Below, one piece after another: positions 1-61,755 of a DNA stretch of 64,000 bases. The DNA lies in contig CALXTU010000005.1 of NCBI GenBank assembly GCA_944391495.1, positions 8,565-72,564 of the forward strand, written 5' to 3'. Position 1 is the stretch's first letter. Each line of letters starts with the position of its first letter. Source of the stretch: an uncultured Alphaproteobacteria bacterium (GTDB taxonomy: Bacteria; Pseudomonadota; Alphaproteobacteria; RF32; CAG-239). The position numbers were made by a program, and so were the translations under genes. The notes under the pieces are model-generated. The model was not told where the DNA came from, made no database searches, and saw only the letters and a program-made list of their open reading frames with translations.

Positions 1-536
1 ACCAGCGATTTCTGAATTTCCATCAACTGGAACAATTCCTTATTGCTGGTGGTGTTGCGCAGATTATATTCAATGGAATCCGTCTTCCGGTTGATAATTT
101 TGAGATACCGCAAAAAGAACTGCGTTGATTTATACAAAATACTCAGCATCAGGTCGGTACGATTGCGGGTATCGAAAGTATCCGCCGTCGCCTTGGTAAA
201 AGAACCGATAATCCGATTCTCCCGCGGACACAGCGTGACAAAATTTTTCGGCGTAAACACCATAGAACACGGCACGGTGTCAAACTGTCCGTCATCATCT
301 AAAAGCGGCAGATTGACAATGACCATAAAATTCTGCCCCTCATGCTCAATACGCGACCTTTCGTCAATATCCAGCGAGCTCTTCAGGGCATCAACGTCCC
401 AGTTAATCCAGCCGGCGACTTTTTCCAACTCTTCGCCGCTGGGATTGATCATATTAATCCAGGATCCGGGGTAAAGCTTGTTTTTCTTGAGCTTAATGAG
501 TTTTTTCTGAGCATCTGTTTTACAAACCTTAAACAT
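1..536 (-). CDS. corA: CorA-family Mg2+ transporter (5' part; runs off window)
   Basis: Not in ORF track. Manual translation from ATG at 536: MFKVCKTDAQKKLIKLKKNKLYPGSWINMINPSGEELEKVA...LKSSLDIDERSRIEHEG...VIVNLP, a typical CorA N-terminus; GGAGG RBS upstream. Confidence 0.8.
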   Translation of the reverse strand, partial: MFKVCKTDAQKKLIKLKKNKLYPGSWINMINPSGEELEKVAGWINWDVDALKSSLDIDERSRIEHEGQNFMVIVNLPLLDDDGQFDTVPCSMVFTPKNFVTLCPRENRIIGSFTKATADTFDTRNRTDLMLSILYKSTQFFLRYLKIINRKTDSIEYNLRNTTSNKELFQLMEIQKSL

Positions 537-659
537 AGCCGTCCTCCCTCTTTTAACATCAAGAAAACCAAAAAATTAAATCAAAGGCAACTCCGTTGAA
601 CATAAAAAAAGCTTTATCTGGTGCCGATTTCCTTGCAAAATCCCTTAAGGGCTTTTGTT

Positions 660-745
660 TGGTGCGGCCAAGAAGACTTGAACTTCCACGGGCTTAGCCC
701 ATAACGACCTCAACGTTACGCGTCTACCAATTCCGCCATGGCCGC
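660..745 (-). tRNA. tRNA-Leu (GAG)
   Basis: Reverse complement GCGGCCATGGCGGAATTGGTAGACGCG-TAACG TTGAGGT CGTTA-...GGAAGTTCAAGTCTTCTTGGCCGCACCA; long variable arm, CCA end. Confidence 0.95.
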
Positions 746-877
746 TTTACAAAACCATTAAAGCTGTCCCTAGAGATAAAGCACAAATCAAAATTAATCA
801 AGCTTTTTTTGCTTATATGAAAAAAATTTTTAATTCTTATGAAAAAACAAGAGCGCTGCTTAAATTATTAATTACAG

Positions 878-910
878 AAAAAAGCCCCCTGTTTTAAAGG
901 GGGCTTTCTT
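878..910 (-). terminator. Intrinsic terminator of 927-1592
   Basis: AAAAAAGCCCCCT-gttttaa-AGGGGGCTTT hairpin with A/T tails. Confidence 0.8.
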
Positions 911-926
911 GCGAATGAAGCATTCA

Positions 927-1592
927 CTAATGTACCGTTACAGGACCTGATGTAGAAGTGCACGCCATGCATAAAGTGGCACCAAAAGAATTAGTGCACT
1001 CTTCTTTGGTTCCGCAGCGGTAGCAGGCGCCGTCGCTGCCTGTAACACCGGTTGATTTCATGCCATATTTGCAGGCGGCGGGAGGGCAAGCGGCGGCTGT
1101 GAAATATCCAGCGTTTATTGTAGCACAGGTTTTTTTGCTTGGTGTTGGATCTGCAACAGAGGGTCTTTCTGTACATTTACAGTATTGTTTCTTTATGGTT
1201 GTTACGCCACACATCATTTTAACTGTATTACCAGTACACCTCAGAAGGGCTTTGCAATCTATGTATCCATCATCAATGCACTCCCGTGCTTCGGCGCTGA
1301 AAGTACACTTATGATATGAATCGTTATACGGACAAGGTGTTTCTTCATATCCGGTTCCGCAACTTTTGGTGCTGGAATATCCGGCCTGTTTGCATTTGTA
1401 GATGCTTGAATTACAATATACGGCGTTTGTATCAAAGGGGCAATGCAGCATGGTTTCGCCGCTGCAATCGGCCTTCGTCATGACATAGCCCAACTCACTG
1501 CAAGTGGGTGGCACCGCGCAGTCAATGGCAGCTAAAGCTGACCCGCCCAATCCGATTAACGCCGCCCCGGCCATTAATAAATATTTCCTCAT
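927..1592 (-). CDS. Secreted Cys-rich protein, family member 1
   Basis: Signal peptide (ALA), N-module CAVPPTCSELGY-x6-CSG-x3-LHCPFD-x5-C, about 23 Cys, AAGGAG RBS. Confidence 0.85.
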   Translation of the reverse strand: MRKYLLMAGAALIGLGGSALAAIDCAVPPTCSELGYVMTKADCSGETMLHCPFDTNAVYCNSSIYKCKQAGYSSTKSCGTGYEETPCPYNDSYHKCTFSAEARECIDDGYIDCKALLRCTGNTVKMMCGVTTIKKQYCKCTERPSVADPTPSKKTCATINAGYFTAAACPPAACKYGMKSTGVTGSDGACYRCGTKEECTNSFGATLCMACTSTSGPVTVH

Positions 1593-1613
1593 CGCTTTTC
1601 TCCTTTTCTCTGC

Positions 1614-1638
1614 TGCAGCAAAACGTTCCTTTTTTTGC
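1614..1638. repeat. Pseudo-palindromic family site, copy A
   Basis: TGCAGCAAAA-CGTTCC-TTTTTTTGC; related copies at 1734, 60850 and 60951. Confidence 0.9.
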
Positions 1639-1712
1639 CGCCATTAAATATAGTATATCAGACATTGGTTAAAAAAGCAATAATTTCGTTTTTACAAATC
1701 TTTATCAAAATC
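1630..1712 (-). promoter_or_regulatory. Conserved 83-bp promoter block of the Cys-rich family (sigma70-like TTGCTT-17-TATACT)
   Basis: -35 at 1675-1680 and -10 at 1652-1657 on the minus strand; 77/83 identical to 60781-60863. Confidence 0.8.
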
Positions 1713-1733
1713 TGCTCCGCTTCTTTGAATTAA

Positions 1734-1758
1734 TGCAGCAAAACGTTCGTTTTTTTGC
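1734..1758. repeat. Pseudo-palindromic family site, copy B
   Basis: TGCAGCAAAA-CGTTCG-TTTTTTTGC, 24/25 direct repeat of copy A, 120 bp away. Confidence 0.9.
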
Positions 1759-1794
1759 ACTGCCGCTACCCGGAAACAAAAAGGAGTTTGTCAG

Positions 1795-2295
1795 ATGAAA
1801 AAACTTATTTTATCCTGCAGCTTATTAGCTTTAACCATGCCGGCCTACGCTGCCTTGGATTGTGATGTACTGCCGACTTGTGAAAAACTCGGCTATGCTT
1901 ATTCCGAAGAAAATTGCGAGGGACAACCGACGCTTAAATGTCCGTTTGACGATACGATGTTATATTGCCCCGAACCAATCAGTCCTGCCGAAAAATGCCT
2001 GGCTGAGGGATATTTCAAAGGGGTTTTATGTATTATCAGTCTAGGTCAACTCGAAGAATCTTGTCCGTATGATGACGACTATGGCAAATGTGTTCAATAC
2101 AGCTGCTCTGAAATCAACCGCTCATATTTTTCCGGTTATGAATGTTCATGTACATACGGTGCCTTATCCACCGGAATAACCGGTTCGGACGGCACATGCT
2201 ATCGATGCGGTACCAAAACAGAATGTAAGGTTGAGGATGATAATCCAAATGACAATCAACTCCCCCTCTCGCCATGTCGCATGTGTAAATTCTGA
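1795..2295 (+). CDS. Secreted Cys-rich protein, family member 2
   Basis: Signal peptide (AYA), CDVLPTCEKLGY-x6-CEG-x3-LKCPFD-x5-C; shares the STGxTGSDGxCYRCGTKxEC block with member 1; AAGGAG RBS. Confidence 0.85.
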   Translation: MKKLILSCSLLALTMPAYAALDCDVLPTCEKLGYAYSEENCEGQPTLKCPFDDTMLYCPEPISPAEKCLAEGYFKGVLCIISLGQLEESCPYDDDYGKCVQYSCSEINRSYFSGYECSCTYGALSTGITGSDGTCYRCGTKTECKVEDDNPNDNQLPLSPCRMCKF

Positions 2296-2312
2296 ATTTT
2301 CACCACACTGTA

Positions 2313-2344
2313 AAAAAATGCTGCTTGTACAAGCAGCATTTTTT
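2313..2344. terminator. 32-bp perfect palindrome / bidirectional terminator, copy 1
   Basis: AAAAAATGCTGCTTGTACAAGCAGCATTTTTT between convergent genes; identical copy at 7838. Confidence 0.85.
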
Positions 2345-2348
2345 CAGA

Positions 2349-4232
2349 TTAATTTTCCAGACCAAGCAGGCGGTATTTTACCCGGACGTCCATTGTCCTG
2401 GCATAGGCATTAATCAATGCGGCGGCTGCATTTTGCTCAAGGTCTTTGCGCATATGTGTATTGGCCGCTTCCAACTGCTGCGGGTTGTCTTCGGCATCAT
2501 GATTGATCACCCGGAGAGGCGAAACAATGGTGGTGATGCCGCCGGAAGACAAAACGGCATAGCCGCCGGTTGCGGTCTGAAACGCCTCAACCGCCTGCGC
2601 CGAATTCAGTTTGGCAAAGGTTTCGCCTTTTTTCAGCGGCGGCGTGGTCTTCAGACGCAGATTGAAGCGTTTGGCGATGTCGGCCAGATTTTCGCCGCTG
2701 TCCAGATCGGCAACAACGTCATTGACGATTTCCTGTGCAATGGCCGATTTTTCGTTCTCGGTCCAGATTTTGATGATTTCCGGTTTGACTTCGTCAATAT
2801 TTTTGAGCCGGGCATCTTCAATTCTGTCAACCGCGGCCAAGACGAATCCGTTTTCGGTCTCAATGGTCTGCGATACCTCATTTTCGTTATAAGAAAAAGC
2901 CGTATCCAGAAAATCGGCCGAAGTAACCAGATCAGCATAGGTCTTGTTGTTGAGAGAAGTGTAGCTTCCGTCTTCTTTCAGACCTTTGACCGAAAGAATT
3001 TTGGCGTCATATTCCTTGGCAATGGTTTTCAGATCAGCGCCGGCGCCGATTTTATCCTCAATGACGGTCATGATTTCCAAAGCCTCATCATAAGCGCGCT
3101 CCTGACGCAGCAGGCTGATAATTTTATCTTTAACCGCGGCCAAAGAAGTTTCCTTTTTCGGCGTAACGGCAATAACTTTAAGAATATGCCAGCCGAATTC
3201 GGAGTTCAACGGACCGACGACATCGTTTAATTTGGCGTCAAATACCTCGGTTGCCAGTTCCGGCAACAGCGAATCGGCCGTAACTTCTCCTAAAGCCGTC
3301 GTTTCTTTATCCTGGCCGGCTTTATCGGCGGCAACCTGATAAAAATCGCTGCCGCTTTGCAGAAGTTTGTATGCCGCTTCAGCCTCTGCCTCGTTATCAA
3401 ACACCATTTGCAGGACTTCGCGTTTTTCCGGAATGACATAATCGGCAATGTTGTCCTGATAGAAAGCCTTGATTTCGTCATCTGAAGGCGTGATGTTGCG
3501 AGTCAGATCGGCTATTTTGAGTTCAATGAACGAAACATCGCGCTTTTCGGCCTCTTCAAACTGCGGGGCAAAGTCCTCGTAATATTGCTCAATTTCTTCG
3601 TCGGAAATATCGCGGTCTATTTTGAGGCTGGCCGGATTGACGGAGATGTAGTCAAAAATCTTCTGCTGATTTTCAATCCGGGTGATGTAGCGGTTCATAA
3701 ACTGCGGGAAAATGATGCCTTCAACCGGCGATGAAACCAGGTGGCGGCTTAAAATGCTCTGACGGAGATCATTGATATATTCCTGCTCGCTCATATCAAA
3801 GTATGACAGCTGCCGGCGCAAAAGTTCCGGGCTGAAACGGCCGGAAGCGTCCATAAATTCGGGCTGGGAGGAAATAATCTGCTGGATAAGCTCGTCGGAA
3901 ATGCTGACGTTTTCTTTTTGTGCCTCACGGGCAATAATCATATCGGTCAGGTTTTGTTTGACCAGTCCGGCCAAAATATCTTTGCGCATTTCGTCGTCAA
4001 CGGTTACGGCATCGCCGAACATGTTTTGGGTTTTGCGGATATTTTCCTGCAGTTTGACGTTCATTTCGTCCTGCAGTATTTCCATATTGTCTACCTTGAT
4101 GACGGCGCGGTTCTTGCCGGCAGAGCTGACATAGCCGGAAATTCCGAACAGCGACATAAAGCTTAAGGCCGTCAGTGCCAAAATGGCTTTGGTGAGCCAT
4201 GAATTTTGGTATTTTCTGATTTTGCTGATCAT
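2349..4232 (-). CDS. ppiD: PpiD / SurA-N peptidyl-prolyl isomerase
   Basis: N-terminal TM, SurA_N region, rotamase motif GPLNSEFGWHILKV; divergent from tpiA as in alphaproteobacteria. Confidence 0.85.
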   Translation of the reverse strand: MISKIRKYQNSWLTKAILALTALSFMSLFGISGYVSSAGKNRAVIKVDNMEILQDEMNVKLQENIRKTQNMFGDAVTVDDEMRKDILAGLVKQNLTDMIIAREAQKENVSISDELIQQIISSQPEFMDASGRFSPELLRRQLSYFDMSEQEYINDLRQSILSRHLVSSPVEGIIFPQFMNRYITRIENQQKIFDYISVNPASLKIDRDISDEEIEQYYEDFAPQFEEAEKRDVSFIELKIADLTRNITPSDDEIKAFYQDNIADYVIPEKREVLQMVFDNEAEAEAAYKLLQSGSDFYQVAADKAGQDKETTALGEVTADSLLPELATEVFDAKLNDVVGPLNSEFGWHILKVIAVTPKKETSLAAVKDKIISLLRQERAYDEALEIMTVIEDKIGAGADLKTIAKEYDAKILSVKGLKEDGSYTSLNNKTYADLVTSADFLDTAFSYNENEVSQTIETENGFVLAAVDRIEDARLKNIDEVKPEIIKIWTENEKSAIAQEIVNDVVADLDSGENLADIAKRFNLRLKTTPPLKKGETFAKLNSAQAVEAFQTATGGYAVLSSGGITTIVSPLRVINHDAEDNPQQLEAANTHMRKDLEQNAAAALINAYARTMDVRVKYRLLGLEN

Positions 4233-4391
4233 TTTATTCTTATCCCTAAATGCAAAAATACTTATAATTGCTGCTGATTATAATCATTTTATTATTTTAT
4301 ACAACTACTCAAATATTGGTGTTGAAAAGTTTTTCCGACTATGCTAGAAAAAGGATAATTTGTAACGTCCAAATACGGAAGGATTTTGAAA

Positions 4392-5150
4392 ATGGCTCGA
4401 AAAATGATGATTGCCGGAAACTGGAAAATGAACGGATTGTCCGCAGACGGCGCCGCTTTGGCCAAGGATGTTGCCTTGGCGGTTAAGGCCAAAAAAAGAA
4501 CTTGCGAATTTGTGGTTTGTCCGCCGTTTACAATTCTGGCGGTTGTTAAAAAAGCTTTGCGCGGCGCCAAGGTTGCTTTGGGCGCGCAGGACTGCCATTT
4601 TGACGAAAAAGGCGCTCATACCGGTGATATCAGTCCGCTGATGCTGACGGACGCAGGGTGTTCTTATGTTATTTTGGGACATTCGGAACGCCGTGCCGAC
4701 CACGGCGAAAGCAATGCTCTGATCTGCCGCAAAGCCGAGGCGGCGCATAAGGCCGGTTTGAAAACGATTATCTGCATCGGCGAAACGCTGGGGCAGCGCG
4801 AGGCCGGCGAAACGATTGACGTTTGCTCCAAACAGATTCTCGGTTCGGTTCCGGACAGCGCGACGGCGGCCGACACGGTGATTGCTTATGAGCCGGTCTG
4901 GGCCATCGGCACCGGAAAGACGCCGACGGCACAAGATGTTGAAGACGTCCATATGGCGGTGCGTAAAGTTTTGGCTAAAAAGCTCGGCAAAGCCCAGGCC
5001 AATAAAATGCGCATTTTGTACGGCGGATCGGTAAAACCGGGCAACGCCAAAGAGCTGCTCGGACTGCCGGATGTTGACGGCGCGCTGGTCGGCGGTGCCA
5101 GTCTGAAGGCGGCTGATTTTATGGCAATTGCCGATAATGCCGGCTGCTAA
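4392..5150 (+). CDS. tpiA: Triosephosphate isomerase
   Basis: [30 protein letters not shown]. Confidence 0.98.
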
Positions 5151-20798: not shown

Positions 20799-21737
20799 AT
20801 GAAACAGGAAATCAAATATGAAGCCTCTGCCGAAGTAACGGCGCTGATTAACGACTGGCGGCAGTGGCTTGCCGGTGAAAAAGGCTGTTCCGTCCATACT
20901 CTGGATGCATATGCCCGGGATCTTTCGTTTTTTTTCACTTTTTGGAACAATTATCTCGGCGCTTTGCCGCGGCTTGATGATCTCAAACAAATTGATGTTC
21001 GGACTTTTCGCGCCTTTTTAAGCACCCGCAGTCAAAAGCACCTGAGCAAGACGTCAATATCCCGCGAGTTGTCGGCAATTAAAAGTTTTTTCAAATGGCT
21101 CAACCGCCGGCACATCATTACCAATACCGCCATTACAATTATCTCTTCACCCAAAAAAGATAAAATTCTGCCCAAAGCTTTGGACGTTGACCAGACTTTT
21201 GAAGTGCTTGACGCCGCCGGAGATTTTGCCAAAACAGAGTGGCAGGGGCTTAGAGATGTCGCCATTTTGACAATACTTTACGGATGCGGTTTGCGAATTT
21301 CTGAAGCCCTGTCACTCAATGTCGGTGATATCAACCATAACGATTTCCTCAAAATACGCGGCAAAGGCAATAAAGAACGGCTGGTGCCGCTCCTGCCCGC
21401 TGTTAAAGAAAAAATCGCCGCCTACCAGCAGGCCTGCCCCTATCATCAGCAACAAGGAGACGCTCTGTTTTTAGGGGCAAGAGGCGAGCGTCTTTCTCCG
21501 CGGATTATCCAGCGAAATTTGGAAAAGCTCAGAAACGCTCTGAGTCTGCCTGACAGCCTGACTCCTCATGCTCTGCGCCATTCTTTTGCCACTCACCTTT
21601 TGGCGGAAGGAACCAATTTGCGCTCCATTCAGGAATTATTGGGCCATGCGTCCCTTTCCACGACCCAGCGCTACACAAATGTTGAGATTGAGCACTTAAA
21701 AAAAGAATACCAAAAGGCACATCTGTTGGACGATTAA
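20799..21737 (+). CDS. xerC: Tyrosine recombinase XerC
   Basis: LYGCGLRISE, GKGNKER, HALRHSFATHLL, LLGHASLSTTQRY; divergent from priA as usual in alphaproteobacteria. Confidence 0.9.
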   Translation: MKQEIKYEASAEVTALINDWRQWLAGEKGCSVHTLDAYARDLSFFFTFWNNYLGALPRLDDLKQIDVRTFRAFLSTRSQKHLSKTSISRELSAIKSFFKWLNRRHIITNTAITIISSPKKDKILPKALDVDQTFEVLDAAGDFAKTEWQGLRDVAILTILYGCGLRISEALSLNVGDINHNDFLKIRGKGNKERLVPLLPAVKEKIAAYQQACPYHQQQGDALFLGARGERLSPRIIQRNLEKLRNALSLPDSLTPHALRHSFATHLLAEGTNLRSIQELLGHASLSTTQRYTNVEIEHLKKEYQKAHLLDD

Positions 21738-60780: not shown

Positions 60781-60863
60781 GATTTTGATAAAGATTTGTA
60801 AATATGAAATTATTGCTTTTTTAACGATTGTCTGATATACTGTGTTTAATGGCGGCAAAAAAA
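60781..60863 (+). promoter_or_regulatory. Second copy of the Cys-rich family promoter block (TTGCTT-17-TATACT)
   Basis: 77/83 identical to the reverse complement of 1630-1712. Confidence 0.85.
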
Positions 60864-60890
60864 CGTTCCTTTTTTTGCCGCCACTTTTTT
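60850..60890 (+). terminator. Leader terminator formed by the left site in the present orientation
   Basis: TGGCGGCAAAAAAA-cgttcc-TTTTTTTGCCGCCA (14-bp perfect stem) followed by CTTTTTT. Confidence 0.65.
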
Positions 60891-60969
60891 GTCTTCATCA
60901 ATTTTCTTTTTCCCTGATTTTCCAAACCTTTCGCTTTTGGCCTTTGTGTAGCAAAAAAAGGAACGTTTT
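60860..60969. repeat. Perfect 19-bp inverted repeats flanking 72 bp (candidate invertible switch)
   Basis: AAAACGTTCCTTTTTTTGC (60860-60878) and GCAAAAAAAGGAACGTTTT (60951-60969). Confidence 0.85.
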
Positions 60970-60996
60970 GCTGCGGCAGAGAAAAGGAGAAGAGCA

Positions 60997-61755
60997 ATGA
61001 GGAAATATCTGTTAATAATGAGTGCAGGTTGTATCGGGTGGCTGGCAACCGGTGCACAGGCGGCCTGTCCTGTTTTCCCTACATGTGAAGAAATGGGTTA
61101 TACAATGACCGCAACGGATTGTTCCGGCAGAGCAACGCTCAAATGTCCGTCTGACCATGCAAAAGTTTTTTGTATTGCCGACAGTTCAACTGAATGTCAA
61201 ATCGGCTCGGTTTTATATAATGACCTCAAGTGTTATGACGAAGCACCGTCCGGTAAAACTGCCATCGGTATCGTTTTTGATACCAGCAAGCGCCTGGCCA
61301 TCAGTTTGGATTCCGGAAAGAATAGCATCTCTTGGGGCAGTAGTGCTGATATTTCCGGATTAGATAACTGTACCGGATCAAATTATACTTCTTGCGGCAC
61401 TGATGGCCAGAGCAATACGCAAAAGATTGTTGCCGCATTGGGCGAATCTTCTGATTATGCGGCCGGTTTTTGCTATACGAGTACTTACGGTAGCTTGCCC
61501 AAAGGCAGCTGGTTCTTGCCGAGCGCCAGTGAATTGAAAACACTGTATAACAACAGAACGCAAATTAATACCGGTATAACCGCAGCCGGGTTTAGTTCTA
61601 CCATTTCGACTGCCTCAATCTATTATTGGTCTTCCACCGAGCGCAACAGTTACAGTGCCTTACTTCTGGGTCTGAGAAATGGCAAAGTGAGCGGCGGCAA
61701 ATTTAAGAATCGTTCCCTTAGTGACCTTTACGCCAGGTGTGCCGTGAAATATTAG
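60997..61755 (+). CDS. Secreted Cys-rich family member 3 with C-terminal DUF1566/CLec-like domain
   Basis: MRKYLL start as in member 1, CPVFPTCEEMGY-x6-CSG-x3-LKCPSD-x5-C; WFLPSASEL and YYWSSTE motifs. Confidence 0.88.
   Translation: MRKYLLIMSAGCIGWLATGAQAACPVFPTCEEMGYTMTATDCSGRATLKCPSDHAKVFCIADSSTECQIGSVLYNDLKCYDEAPSGKTAIGIVFDTSKRLAISLDSGKNSISWGSSADISGLDNCTGSNYTSCGTDGQSNTQKIVAALGESSDYAAGFCYTSTYGSLPKGSWFLPSASELKTLYNNRTQINTGITAAGFSSTISTASIYYWSSTERNSYSALLLGLRNGKVSGGKFKNRSLSDLYARCAVKY

Follow-up and report, generated by a model that had tools for sequence, protein, structure and literature searches.

Does the intergenic region 1593-1794, in which a single promoter lies between two nearly identical repeats and two divergent genes, act as a switch that can turn this promoter from one gene to the other? 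We addressed this question in the window, i.e. the whole stretch of 64,000 bp that was analysed, which corresponds to positions 8565-72564 of contig C5 in a 1.46-Mb genome assembled in 8 contigs (hereafter G000). The two divergent genes, referred to as member 1 and member 2, and the elements that separate them are organized as follows:

927..1592, minus strand: member 1, a 221-aa secreted Cys-rich protein with 23 Cys and the N-terminal module of the family (ORF list and family scan); the promoter points at it
1593..1613, minus strand: member-1 leader with ribosome-binding site (GCAGAGAAAAGGAG block), kept in all member-1-type loci
1614..1642, no strand assigned: site A, tgcagc-A4-CG-TT-CC-T7-gccgcc, with its centre TT at 1626-1627
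1628..1745, minus strand: 120-bp promoter cassette between both site centres, a block conserved at 10 loci
1734..1763, no strand assigned: site B, tgcagc-A4-CG-TT-CG-T7-gcactgcc, with its centre TT at 1746-1747 and the same polarity as site A
1764..1794, plus strand: member-2 leader with ribosome-binding site AAGGAG (1781-1786) and no promoter-like match upstream
1795..2295, plus strand: member 2, a 166-aa secreted Cys-rich protein with 18 Cys, of the same family (ORF list and family scan)

A repeat search returned 1614-1638 and 1734-1758 as 25-nt direct repeats that are identical at 24 positions (96%) and start 120 bp apart, in agreement with the original prediction. The 21-nt core, with up to 3 mismatches allowed, was found four times in the window (on the plus strand at 1618, 1738 and 60858 and on the minus strand at 60951) against 0.01 matches expected, and none of 100 shuffled sequences reached four. 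The opposite strands of the matches at 1618 and 60951 bear out the claim that site A is inverted relative to the site at 60951. The promoter scan of 1593-1794 likewise upheld the prediction of one clear promoter that faces member 1 and no good one for member 2. The conserved promoter, read from the sequence, is TTGCTT-17-TATACT at 1680..1652 on the minus strand (−35 at 1680..1675, −10 at 1657..1652), and the scan added a second minus-strand match, TTGATA-17-AATTAT, at 1708..1680. All promoter-like matches inside the region are on the minus strand; the scan found none for member 2 upstream of its leader, the sole plus-strand match (1788-1816) overlapping the start codon of this gene. Besides the N-terminal Cys module, both proteins have a common C-terminal motif, TG(V/I)TGSDG(A/T)CYRCGTK(E/T)EC. 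The gene pair sits between a tRNA-Leu(gag) gene (660-745) and a ppiD/SurA-like gene (2349-4232). The corresponding place beside the ppiD-like gene holds neither member and no tRNA-Leu in three related genomes (G069, G002 and G003), which indicates that the gene pair is accessory DNA; the contig of a congeneric genome, G017, ends at this place.

Sites A and B belong to a family of ~26-bp sites of the form GC-A(4-7)-[C/G]G-WW-C[C/G]-T(4-7)-GC, in which near-symmetric half-sites surround an asymmetric TT or AA centre. This organization matches the layout of hix and gix, the sites of Hin and Gin, which are ~26 bp long and consist of two near-identical half-sites with A-tracts around a 2-bp asymmetric centre that sets their polarity. 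The half-sites of G000 read GCA7CG and GCA7GG, and the only systematic asymmetry between half-sites is the central dinucleotide. A loose regular expression for the core matched 26 copies in the genome, which resolve into 10 adjacent pairs. These sites bracket 10 paralogous promoter/leader segments, and the promoter block, with a conserved 22-bp block upstream of its −35, recurs at 10 loci, distributed over 7 contigs. The distance between the centres of a pair belongs to one of two classes, with 120 bp (five pairs) or 131 bp (one pair) for promoter cassettes, and 95, 95, 96 and 96 bp for the four leader segments. Eight of the 10 pairs are inverted (AA/TT), one is AT/AT, and the remaining one, the site A/B locus, is the only direct pair. 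The AT/AT pair, at C2:344272, carries the identical A-to-T change at the centre of both partner sites. Counted in the same way, the 10 pairs of G017 comprise five inverted, four AT/AT, one odd (TT/AC) and no direct pair; its sites are 30-bp palindromes, GTTGC-A7-GG-WW-CC-T7-GCAAC, perfect except for a TT, AA or AT centre. Asymmetric pairs in other taxa are inverted in 4 of 4 cases (L059, L060, L086 and L098). The binomial p value of 0.0009 for 13 inverted pairs out of 14 is overstated, as paralogous loci are not independent. An additional indication of past rearrangement comes from C7:41997, where an 84-bp segment matches three class-1 loci at 60-67 of 84 positions when reverse-complemented and at 32-37 of 84 in the forward orientation, which implies at least one inversion of this segment in the course of evolution.

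The sites also resemble those of a known invertase. The inverted repeats of Mpi in Bacteroides fragilis are given as ARACGTTCGTN in a published report (PMC8375218). Site B contains AAACGTTCGTT, an exact fit to this consensus, and site A contains AAACGTTCCTT, with one mismatch. Three small serine recombinases are encoded in the genome, SR1, SR2 (C1:331143-331721) and SR3 (C1:325707-326300). Against the NCBIfam model NF009949 (master DNA invertase Mpi family, curated cut-off of 272 bits), SR3 scores 300.4 bits, SR2 273.5 bits and the orthologue in G017 294.1 bits, all above the cut-off. SR2 and SR3 each have a Resolvase N-terminal domain, with a YIRVSTDKQ motif that we take to hold the catalytic serine. 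SR1 reaches 180 bits, below the cut-off, and lies on an AT-rich island (C2:271300-277600; L003 and L004) together with a tyrosine integrase and large ORFs of unknown function. An Mpi-family gene scoring above the cut-off is present in 5 of 5 other site-bearing genomes tested versus 1 of 14 control genomes. No recombinase gene adjoins a site at any of the 8 recombinase loci examined. The sites would be recombined by a small serine invertase whose gene lies elsewhere, with SR3 and SR2 as candidates. SR3 was not retained as the specific enzyme, its link to the sites being circumstantial: its closest orthologues, in G069 (81% identity) and G017 (80%; all others at most 65%), come from one genome with sites and one without strict sites. 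Indeed, despite its 81%-identical orthologue, G069 has no A6..T6 sites or long A/T arms, and its matches to a looser core number 13 against 3 for the reversed control. The tyrosine recombinases of G000 also number three, namely a XerD-like protein, a XerC-like protein and the island integrase. The XerC-like gene (20799-21737 of the window) scores 319.8 bits against TIGR02224, slightly below the cut-off of this model; it probably encodes the chromosome-dimer resolvase and lies outside the site system.

Two switch designs are found at the paralogous loci. In the first, a 120-bp cassette carrying the promoter lies between oppositely oriented sites beside a member-2-type gene (C3:56075, C7:41997 and C8:22628, the last with perfect 24-bp inverted repeats) or, at C6:26808, between a pair of divergent paralogues (396 and 394 aa). 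In the second, a fixed promoter is followed by a site termed P, a 96-bp segment, an inverted site termed G, a ribosome-binding site and the gene (C2:152308, C7:19674 and C5:69374, the latter at 60.8 kb of the window). Two loci of G017 (L024 and L016) have three sites and combine both designs between two divergent genes. The second design is represented in the window by the following features:

60785..60845, plus strand: fixed copy of the promoter block at the 60-kb locus (alignment)
60850..60893, plus strand: P site, GGCGGC-A7-CG-TT-CC-T7-GCCGCC, which is also an intrinsic-terminator-like hairpin with a T tail
60868..60961, no strand assigned: 96-bp leader segment between the P and G centres, absent from the member-1 leader (alignment)
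60951..60975, no strand assigned: G site, GC-A7-GG-AA-CG-T4-GCTGC, with an orientation opposite to that of site A and of the P site
60997..61755, plus strand: a 252-aa family member with a sub-threshold Lcl_C match, behind the terminator-type switch

The P-site hairpin has 14 pairs, a loop of 6 and the tail CTTTTTTGTC, with 9 T in the 12 nt that follow the stem. Its predicted fold of −20.3 kcal/mol (z −5.9) was equalled by none of 200 shuffled sequences. When the 96-bp segment was inverted in silico, the 5′ hairpin dropped to −11.7 kcal/mol and the T tail from 9 T to none. At the 60-kb locus, a terminator is thus predicted for one orientation only, and the repeats do not enclose the promoter. 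The same features are described for Clostridioides difficile cwpV, in which the promoter is outside the inverted repeats and one orientation yields an intrinsic terminator in the leader (PMC2784873). We propose that at most loci the inverted sites would let an invertase flip either the 120-bp promoter cassette or the 96-bp leader segment, the first site of the latter being itself the putative terminator hairpin.

The organization of 1593-1794 departs from both designs. The upstream region of member 1 is collinear with the 60.8-kb locus through the promoter, the site and the ribosome-binding site, with one gap of ~96 columns flanked on both sides by GCAAAAAAA; this alignment supports the earlier description of the member-1 leader as the 60-kb locus without its internal segment, a locked-ON-like form. 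Along the direction in which the promoter points, the upstream site of invertible loci has an AA centre and the downstream site a TT centre. Site A, the downstream site at 1593-1794, reads ggcggc-A7-GGAACG-TTTTgctgc, in which the promoter-proximal arm of a P site (ggcggcA7) is joined to a core and a gene-proximal arm that come from a G site. Removal of the ~96 bp between the GCAAAAAAA repeats of a 60-kb-type leader therefore yields exactly the form of site A, with its whole 6-bp core reversed and sites A and B head to tail. The repeats that flank the promoter thus do not have the inverted orientation of the invertible loci, both centres being TT on the plus strand, and the hairpin of the member-1 leader is limited to −10.4 kcal/mol (z −1.8), with no T tail. 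In Hin and Gin, religation requires matching centre dinucleotides, a rule that comes from the biochemistry of these enzymes, not from that of Mpi. If the rule holds here, head-to-tail sites A and B cannot religate after the half-turn, and deletion, not inversion, is the only reaction allowed. The promoter would consequently be fixed on member 1 with no terminator in its way (locked ON), member 2 would be left promoter-less, and the only remaining site-specific reaction would be deletion of the 120-bp cassette, leaving one hybrid site between two promoter-less genes. We consider it rather probable that a multi-locus, Mpi-type phase variation system has sites A and B among its recombination sites and that this locus is a collapsed, non-invertible member of it, the collapse following, in the order of events that we infer, from the loss of the leader segment. 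Among the observations that count against this reading, the ORF of member 2 is intact although the gene is predicted to be silent, and the inner arm of site B is TTTTGCTGC instead of T7GC. It is because of this two-base difference in the inner arm of site B that sites A and B are 24/25 identical. The sequence of this arm (1734-1746), TGCAGCAAAA, resembles the gene-proximal arms of member-1-type leaders and differs from the GC-A7 that the other four upstream sites show here.

We searched for rearranged junctions by comparing positions 1-5000 of the window, at 90% likeness, with the Logan contigs of four (X2, X6, X10 and X11) out of 22 sequencing runs; the runs that contain this genome are chicken-gut metagenomes. 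Unitigs of the independent run X2 match both junctions with 0 differences (record 17 spans 1584-1684, from the member-1 leader through site A to the −10 side of the cassette, and record 21 spans 1687-1803, from the upstream side of the cassette through site B to the member-2 leader), which indicates that the head-to-tail arrangement is not an assembly artefact. The contigs of the four runs contain only the reference junctions at the site A/B locus, with no 120-bp deletion, circle junction, strand-change joint or 1.6k/60.9k chimera, given that contigs break at repeats and drop rare variants. The other loci of this genome likewise yielded no inversion, deletion or circle junction. A 59-kb inversion between site A and the 60-kb locus, raised in the original prediction, is geometrically possible; the absence of chimeric contigs in the four runs leaves room for rare events that could escape detection. 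The single back-joint, in X11, links 1758 to 1655 with 15 letters between. This joint and the loose ends at 1620, 1638 and 1641 look like junctions that belong to paralogues (of the C1:273472, C7:19674 and 60-kb G types). A stretch of 104 letters upstream of 1735 is unaligned in X6. The summed depth over 1504-1837 in X2 is ~7 times the flanking depth, as expected because the cassette is multi-copy.

The first alternative to a collapsed locus is an active two-way toggle, in which the cassette would still flip between members 1 and 2, through an enzyme that is indifferent to the mismatch or through a tyrosine recombinase that reads the sites, which also fit a 13-6-13 lox/dif-like layout. Divergent pairs with one bracketed promoter and intact genes do exist (C6:26808 and the two three-site loci of G017), member 2 is intact as well, and the AT centres at C2:344272 show that polarity is not always encoded. 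On the contrary, the difference at site A goes beyond a single-base change, as its whole 6-bp core is reversed (GGAACG, versus CGTTCC in the P sites of invertible loci), and an antiparallel alignment of sites A and B matches at only 3 of 6 core positions. The sole tyrosine recombinases are the three listed above, and the contigs held no strand-change joint. The flip toward member 2 that had been put forward is disfavoured for the same reason, since both centres are TT on the same strand versus opposite centres in 8 of 9 other pairs, and we regard the toggle as unlikely.

The deletion product predicted by our main reading, and thus a point in its favour, exists at the paralogous locus at C3:181.8 kb (C3:181700-182700; L023), where a member-1-type and a member-2-type gene lie back to back. 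No promoter occurs in the ~80 bp that separate them, in which one hybrid site (c'-A4-TG-TT-CG-T7-d) is located. The member-1-type gene is intact (~250 aa, Lcl_C-like) and the member-2-type gene has an in-frame TAG after CPFDKT. Excision of the promoter by recombination between sites A and B, as originally proposed, is thus allowed by the polarity of the sites and has a counterpart in this paralogous scar; the contigs did not contain the excised form. A second alternative goes further and supposes a shuttling promoter, in which the Mpi-family enzyme would excise the 120-bp circle from head-to-tail loci and reinsert it at single-site loci such as C3:181.8 kb. Three paralogue states would fit such traffic, i.e. 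inverted-flanked, direct-flanked (the site A/B locus and C2:344272) and single-site without promoter, as would the count of 10 promoters for at least 13 family genes. If true, a limited number of promoters would circulate in the cell among surface-protein genes that outnumber them. We find this somewhat less plausible still than the toggle: neither a circle nor a deletion junction occurs in the contigs, a 120-bp circle is very small, the pseudogene at the promoter-less locus suggests decay and not traffic, and slippage or homologous deletion between 21-25-bp repeats would leave an identical scar, so that C3:181.8 kb is no proof of a recombinase.

The palindromes might also not be recombination sites at all, acting instead as bidirectional terminators or insulators, or as operators of a dimeric regulator, that were duplicated along with the promoter. 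The full P site is indeed a strong hairpin with a T tail, and isolated copies of the pattern form terminator-like hairpins in unrelated genomes (e.g. L079). Left unexplained by this reading, to which we assign little probability, are the opposite centre dinucleotides in 8 of 10 pairs, the inversion of the segment at C7:41997, the fit of the sites to the Mpi consensus, their joint occurrence with Mpi-family genes and the single site of hybrid form at C3:181.8 kb. Finally, pairing in trans of the complementary 24-nt leaders of the divergent mRNAs, proposed as a basis for mutually exclusive expression, is very improbable: site A is indeed present, reverse-complemented, in the member-1 leader, and a member-2 leader starting upstream of site B would contain site B, but no promoter was found that would make this second RNA, every leader of the family has the same site so that pairing would not be locus-specific, the region of site B folds no better than shuffled sequences (z +0.48), and the complementarity is a by-product of both leaders carrying one site.

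Returning to the collapsed-locus reading, we investigated which genes the sites accompany and how far they extend. A motif scan for the N-terminal Cys module identified 13 ORFs, two of which (C1:274853 and C3:13550) were judged false and dropped. A site is located within 400 bp of the 5′ end in 11 of the 11 secreted Cys-rich family genes retained. Their C-terminal parts differ: one paralogue has a phage tail-collar domain (Collar, 35.6 bits versus a cut-off of 24) and two have sub-threshold Lcl_C matches. Members 1 and 2 gave no Pfam match and no usable ESM Atlas match. The strict site pattern occurs in 3 of 56 genomes of the genus, with 10 sites in G000, 19 in G017 and one marginal match in G008. 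When one genome per species was considered, the strict pattern returned 23 loci, nearly all in uncultured gut Alphaproteobacteria according to the record labels, the remaining ones being in two Parabacteroides records and, as a single site of terminator-like form, in Exercitatus. G011, which represents another species of the genus, has AT-centred core motifs in pairs 138 bp apart at C18:81934/82072 and C26:457/595, a sequence arrangement that suggests a related switch with a different cassette length. A separate scan of metagenomes gave 37 loci, ~18 of which are one recurrent human-gut locus with two sites of this family that are centred on GGATCC and spaced by exactly 120 bp, as at 1593-1794 (L037-L039, L043-L045, L048, L050, L053-L057, L062, L065, L068 and L069); the pattern used cannot match the flipped form, and the uniform orientation at this locus is therefore uninformative.

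Promoter inversion at multiple loci by an Mpi-type invertase is well known in Bacteroides (PMC4747536). The system described here resembles that of B. fragilis Mpi (FinA) in several respects: a small serine invertase of the same NCBIfam family, many dispersed promoter segments for surface or secreted products with the enzyme encoded away from the sites, the presence of the repeat core (PMC8375218), and one putatively locked-ON, non-invertible family member, as for the capsule promoter C that is locked ON among seven invertible ones (PMC10403206). It differs from it by its host, an uncultured gut alphaproteobacterium, by its longer near-palindromic sites with A7/T7 arms, by its targets, which are Cys-rich secreted proteins and not capsule operons, and by the direct orientation of the sites at 1593-1794. 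The units of 120 and 96 bp are also much shorter than those of 183-186 bp reported in B. intestinalis (PMC8375218). The repeats of B. fragilis have been likened to those of hin in the title of a paper cited in PMC3090145. Compared to the Hin system, the segments found here are far shorter than the ~1-kb H segment and occupy many loci instead of one. Unlike at cwpV, the recombination site itself is predicted to form the terminator stem, and the invertible leader segment is absent at 1593-1794. RecV, for its part, is a tyrosine recombinase. A literature search of limited extent for such a system in Alphaproteobacteria returned only general surveys (PMC11602134). The less ordinary features are the second role of a recombination site as a putative terminator stem, units as short as 96 and 120 bp, the family of genes targeted and the series of loci that runs from invertible to collapsed to promoter-less.

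If our interpretation is correct, phase variation by a master invertase in the style of Bacteroides would extend to a secreted Cys-rich family in gut alphaproteobacteria with small genomes. A single genome would then provide a natural series made of an invertible promoter, an invertible leader terminator, a collapsed locked-ON locus and a promoter-less scar, and this series of states suggests how such switches are built and decay. Sites that form the terminator stem and units of 96-120 bp would constrain models of Mpi-type synapsis. For annotation, the locus is a warning that repeats on both sides of a promoter do not by themselves make it switchable and that the polarity of the central dinucleotide must be read. 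Outside the window, the genome also contains a CRISPR-like array (C2:75430-76950) with 23 copies of a ~36-bp repeat at a 66-bp period, separated by variable 30-bp spacers.
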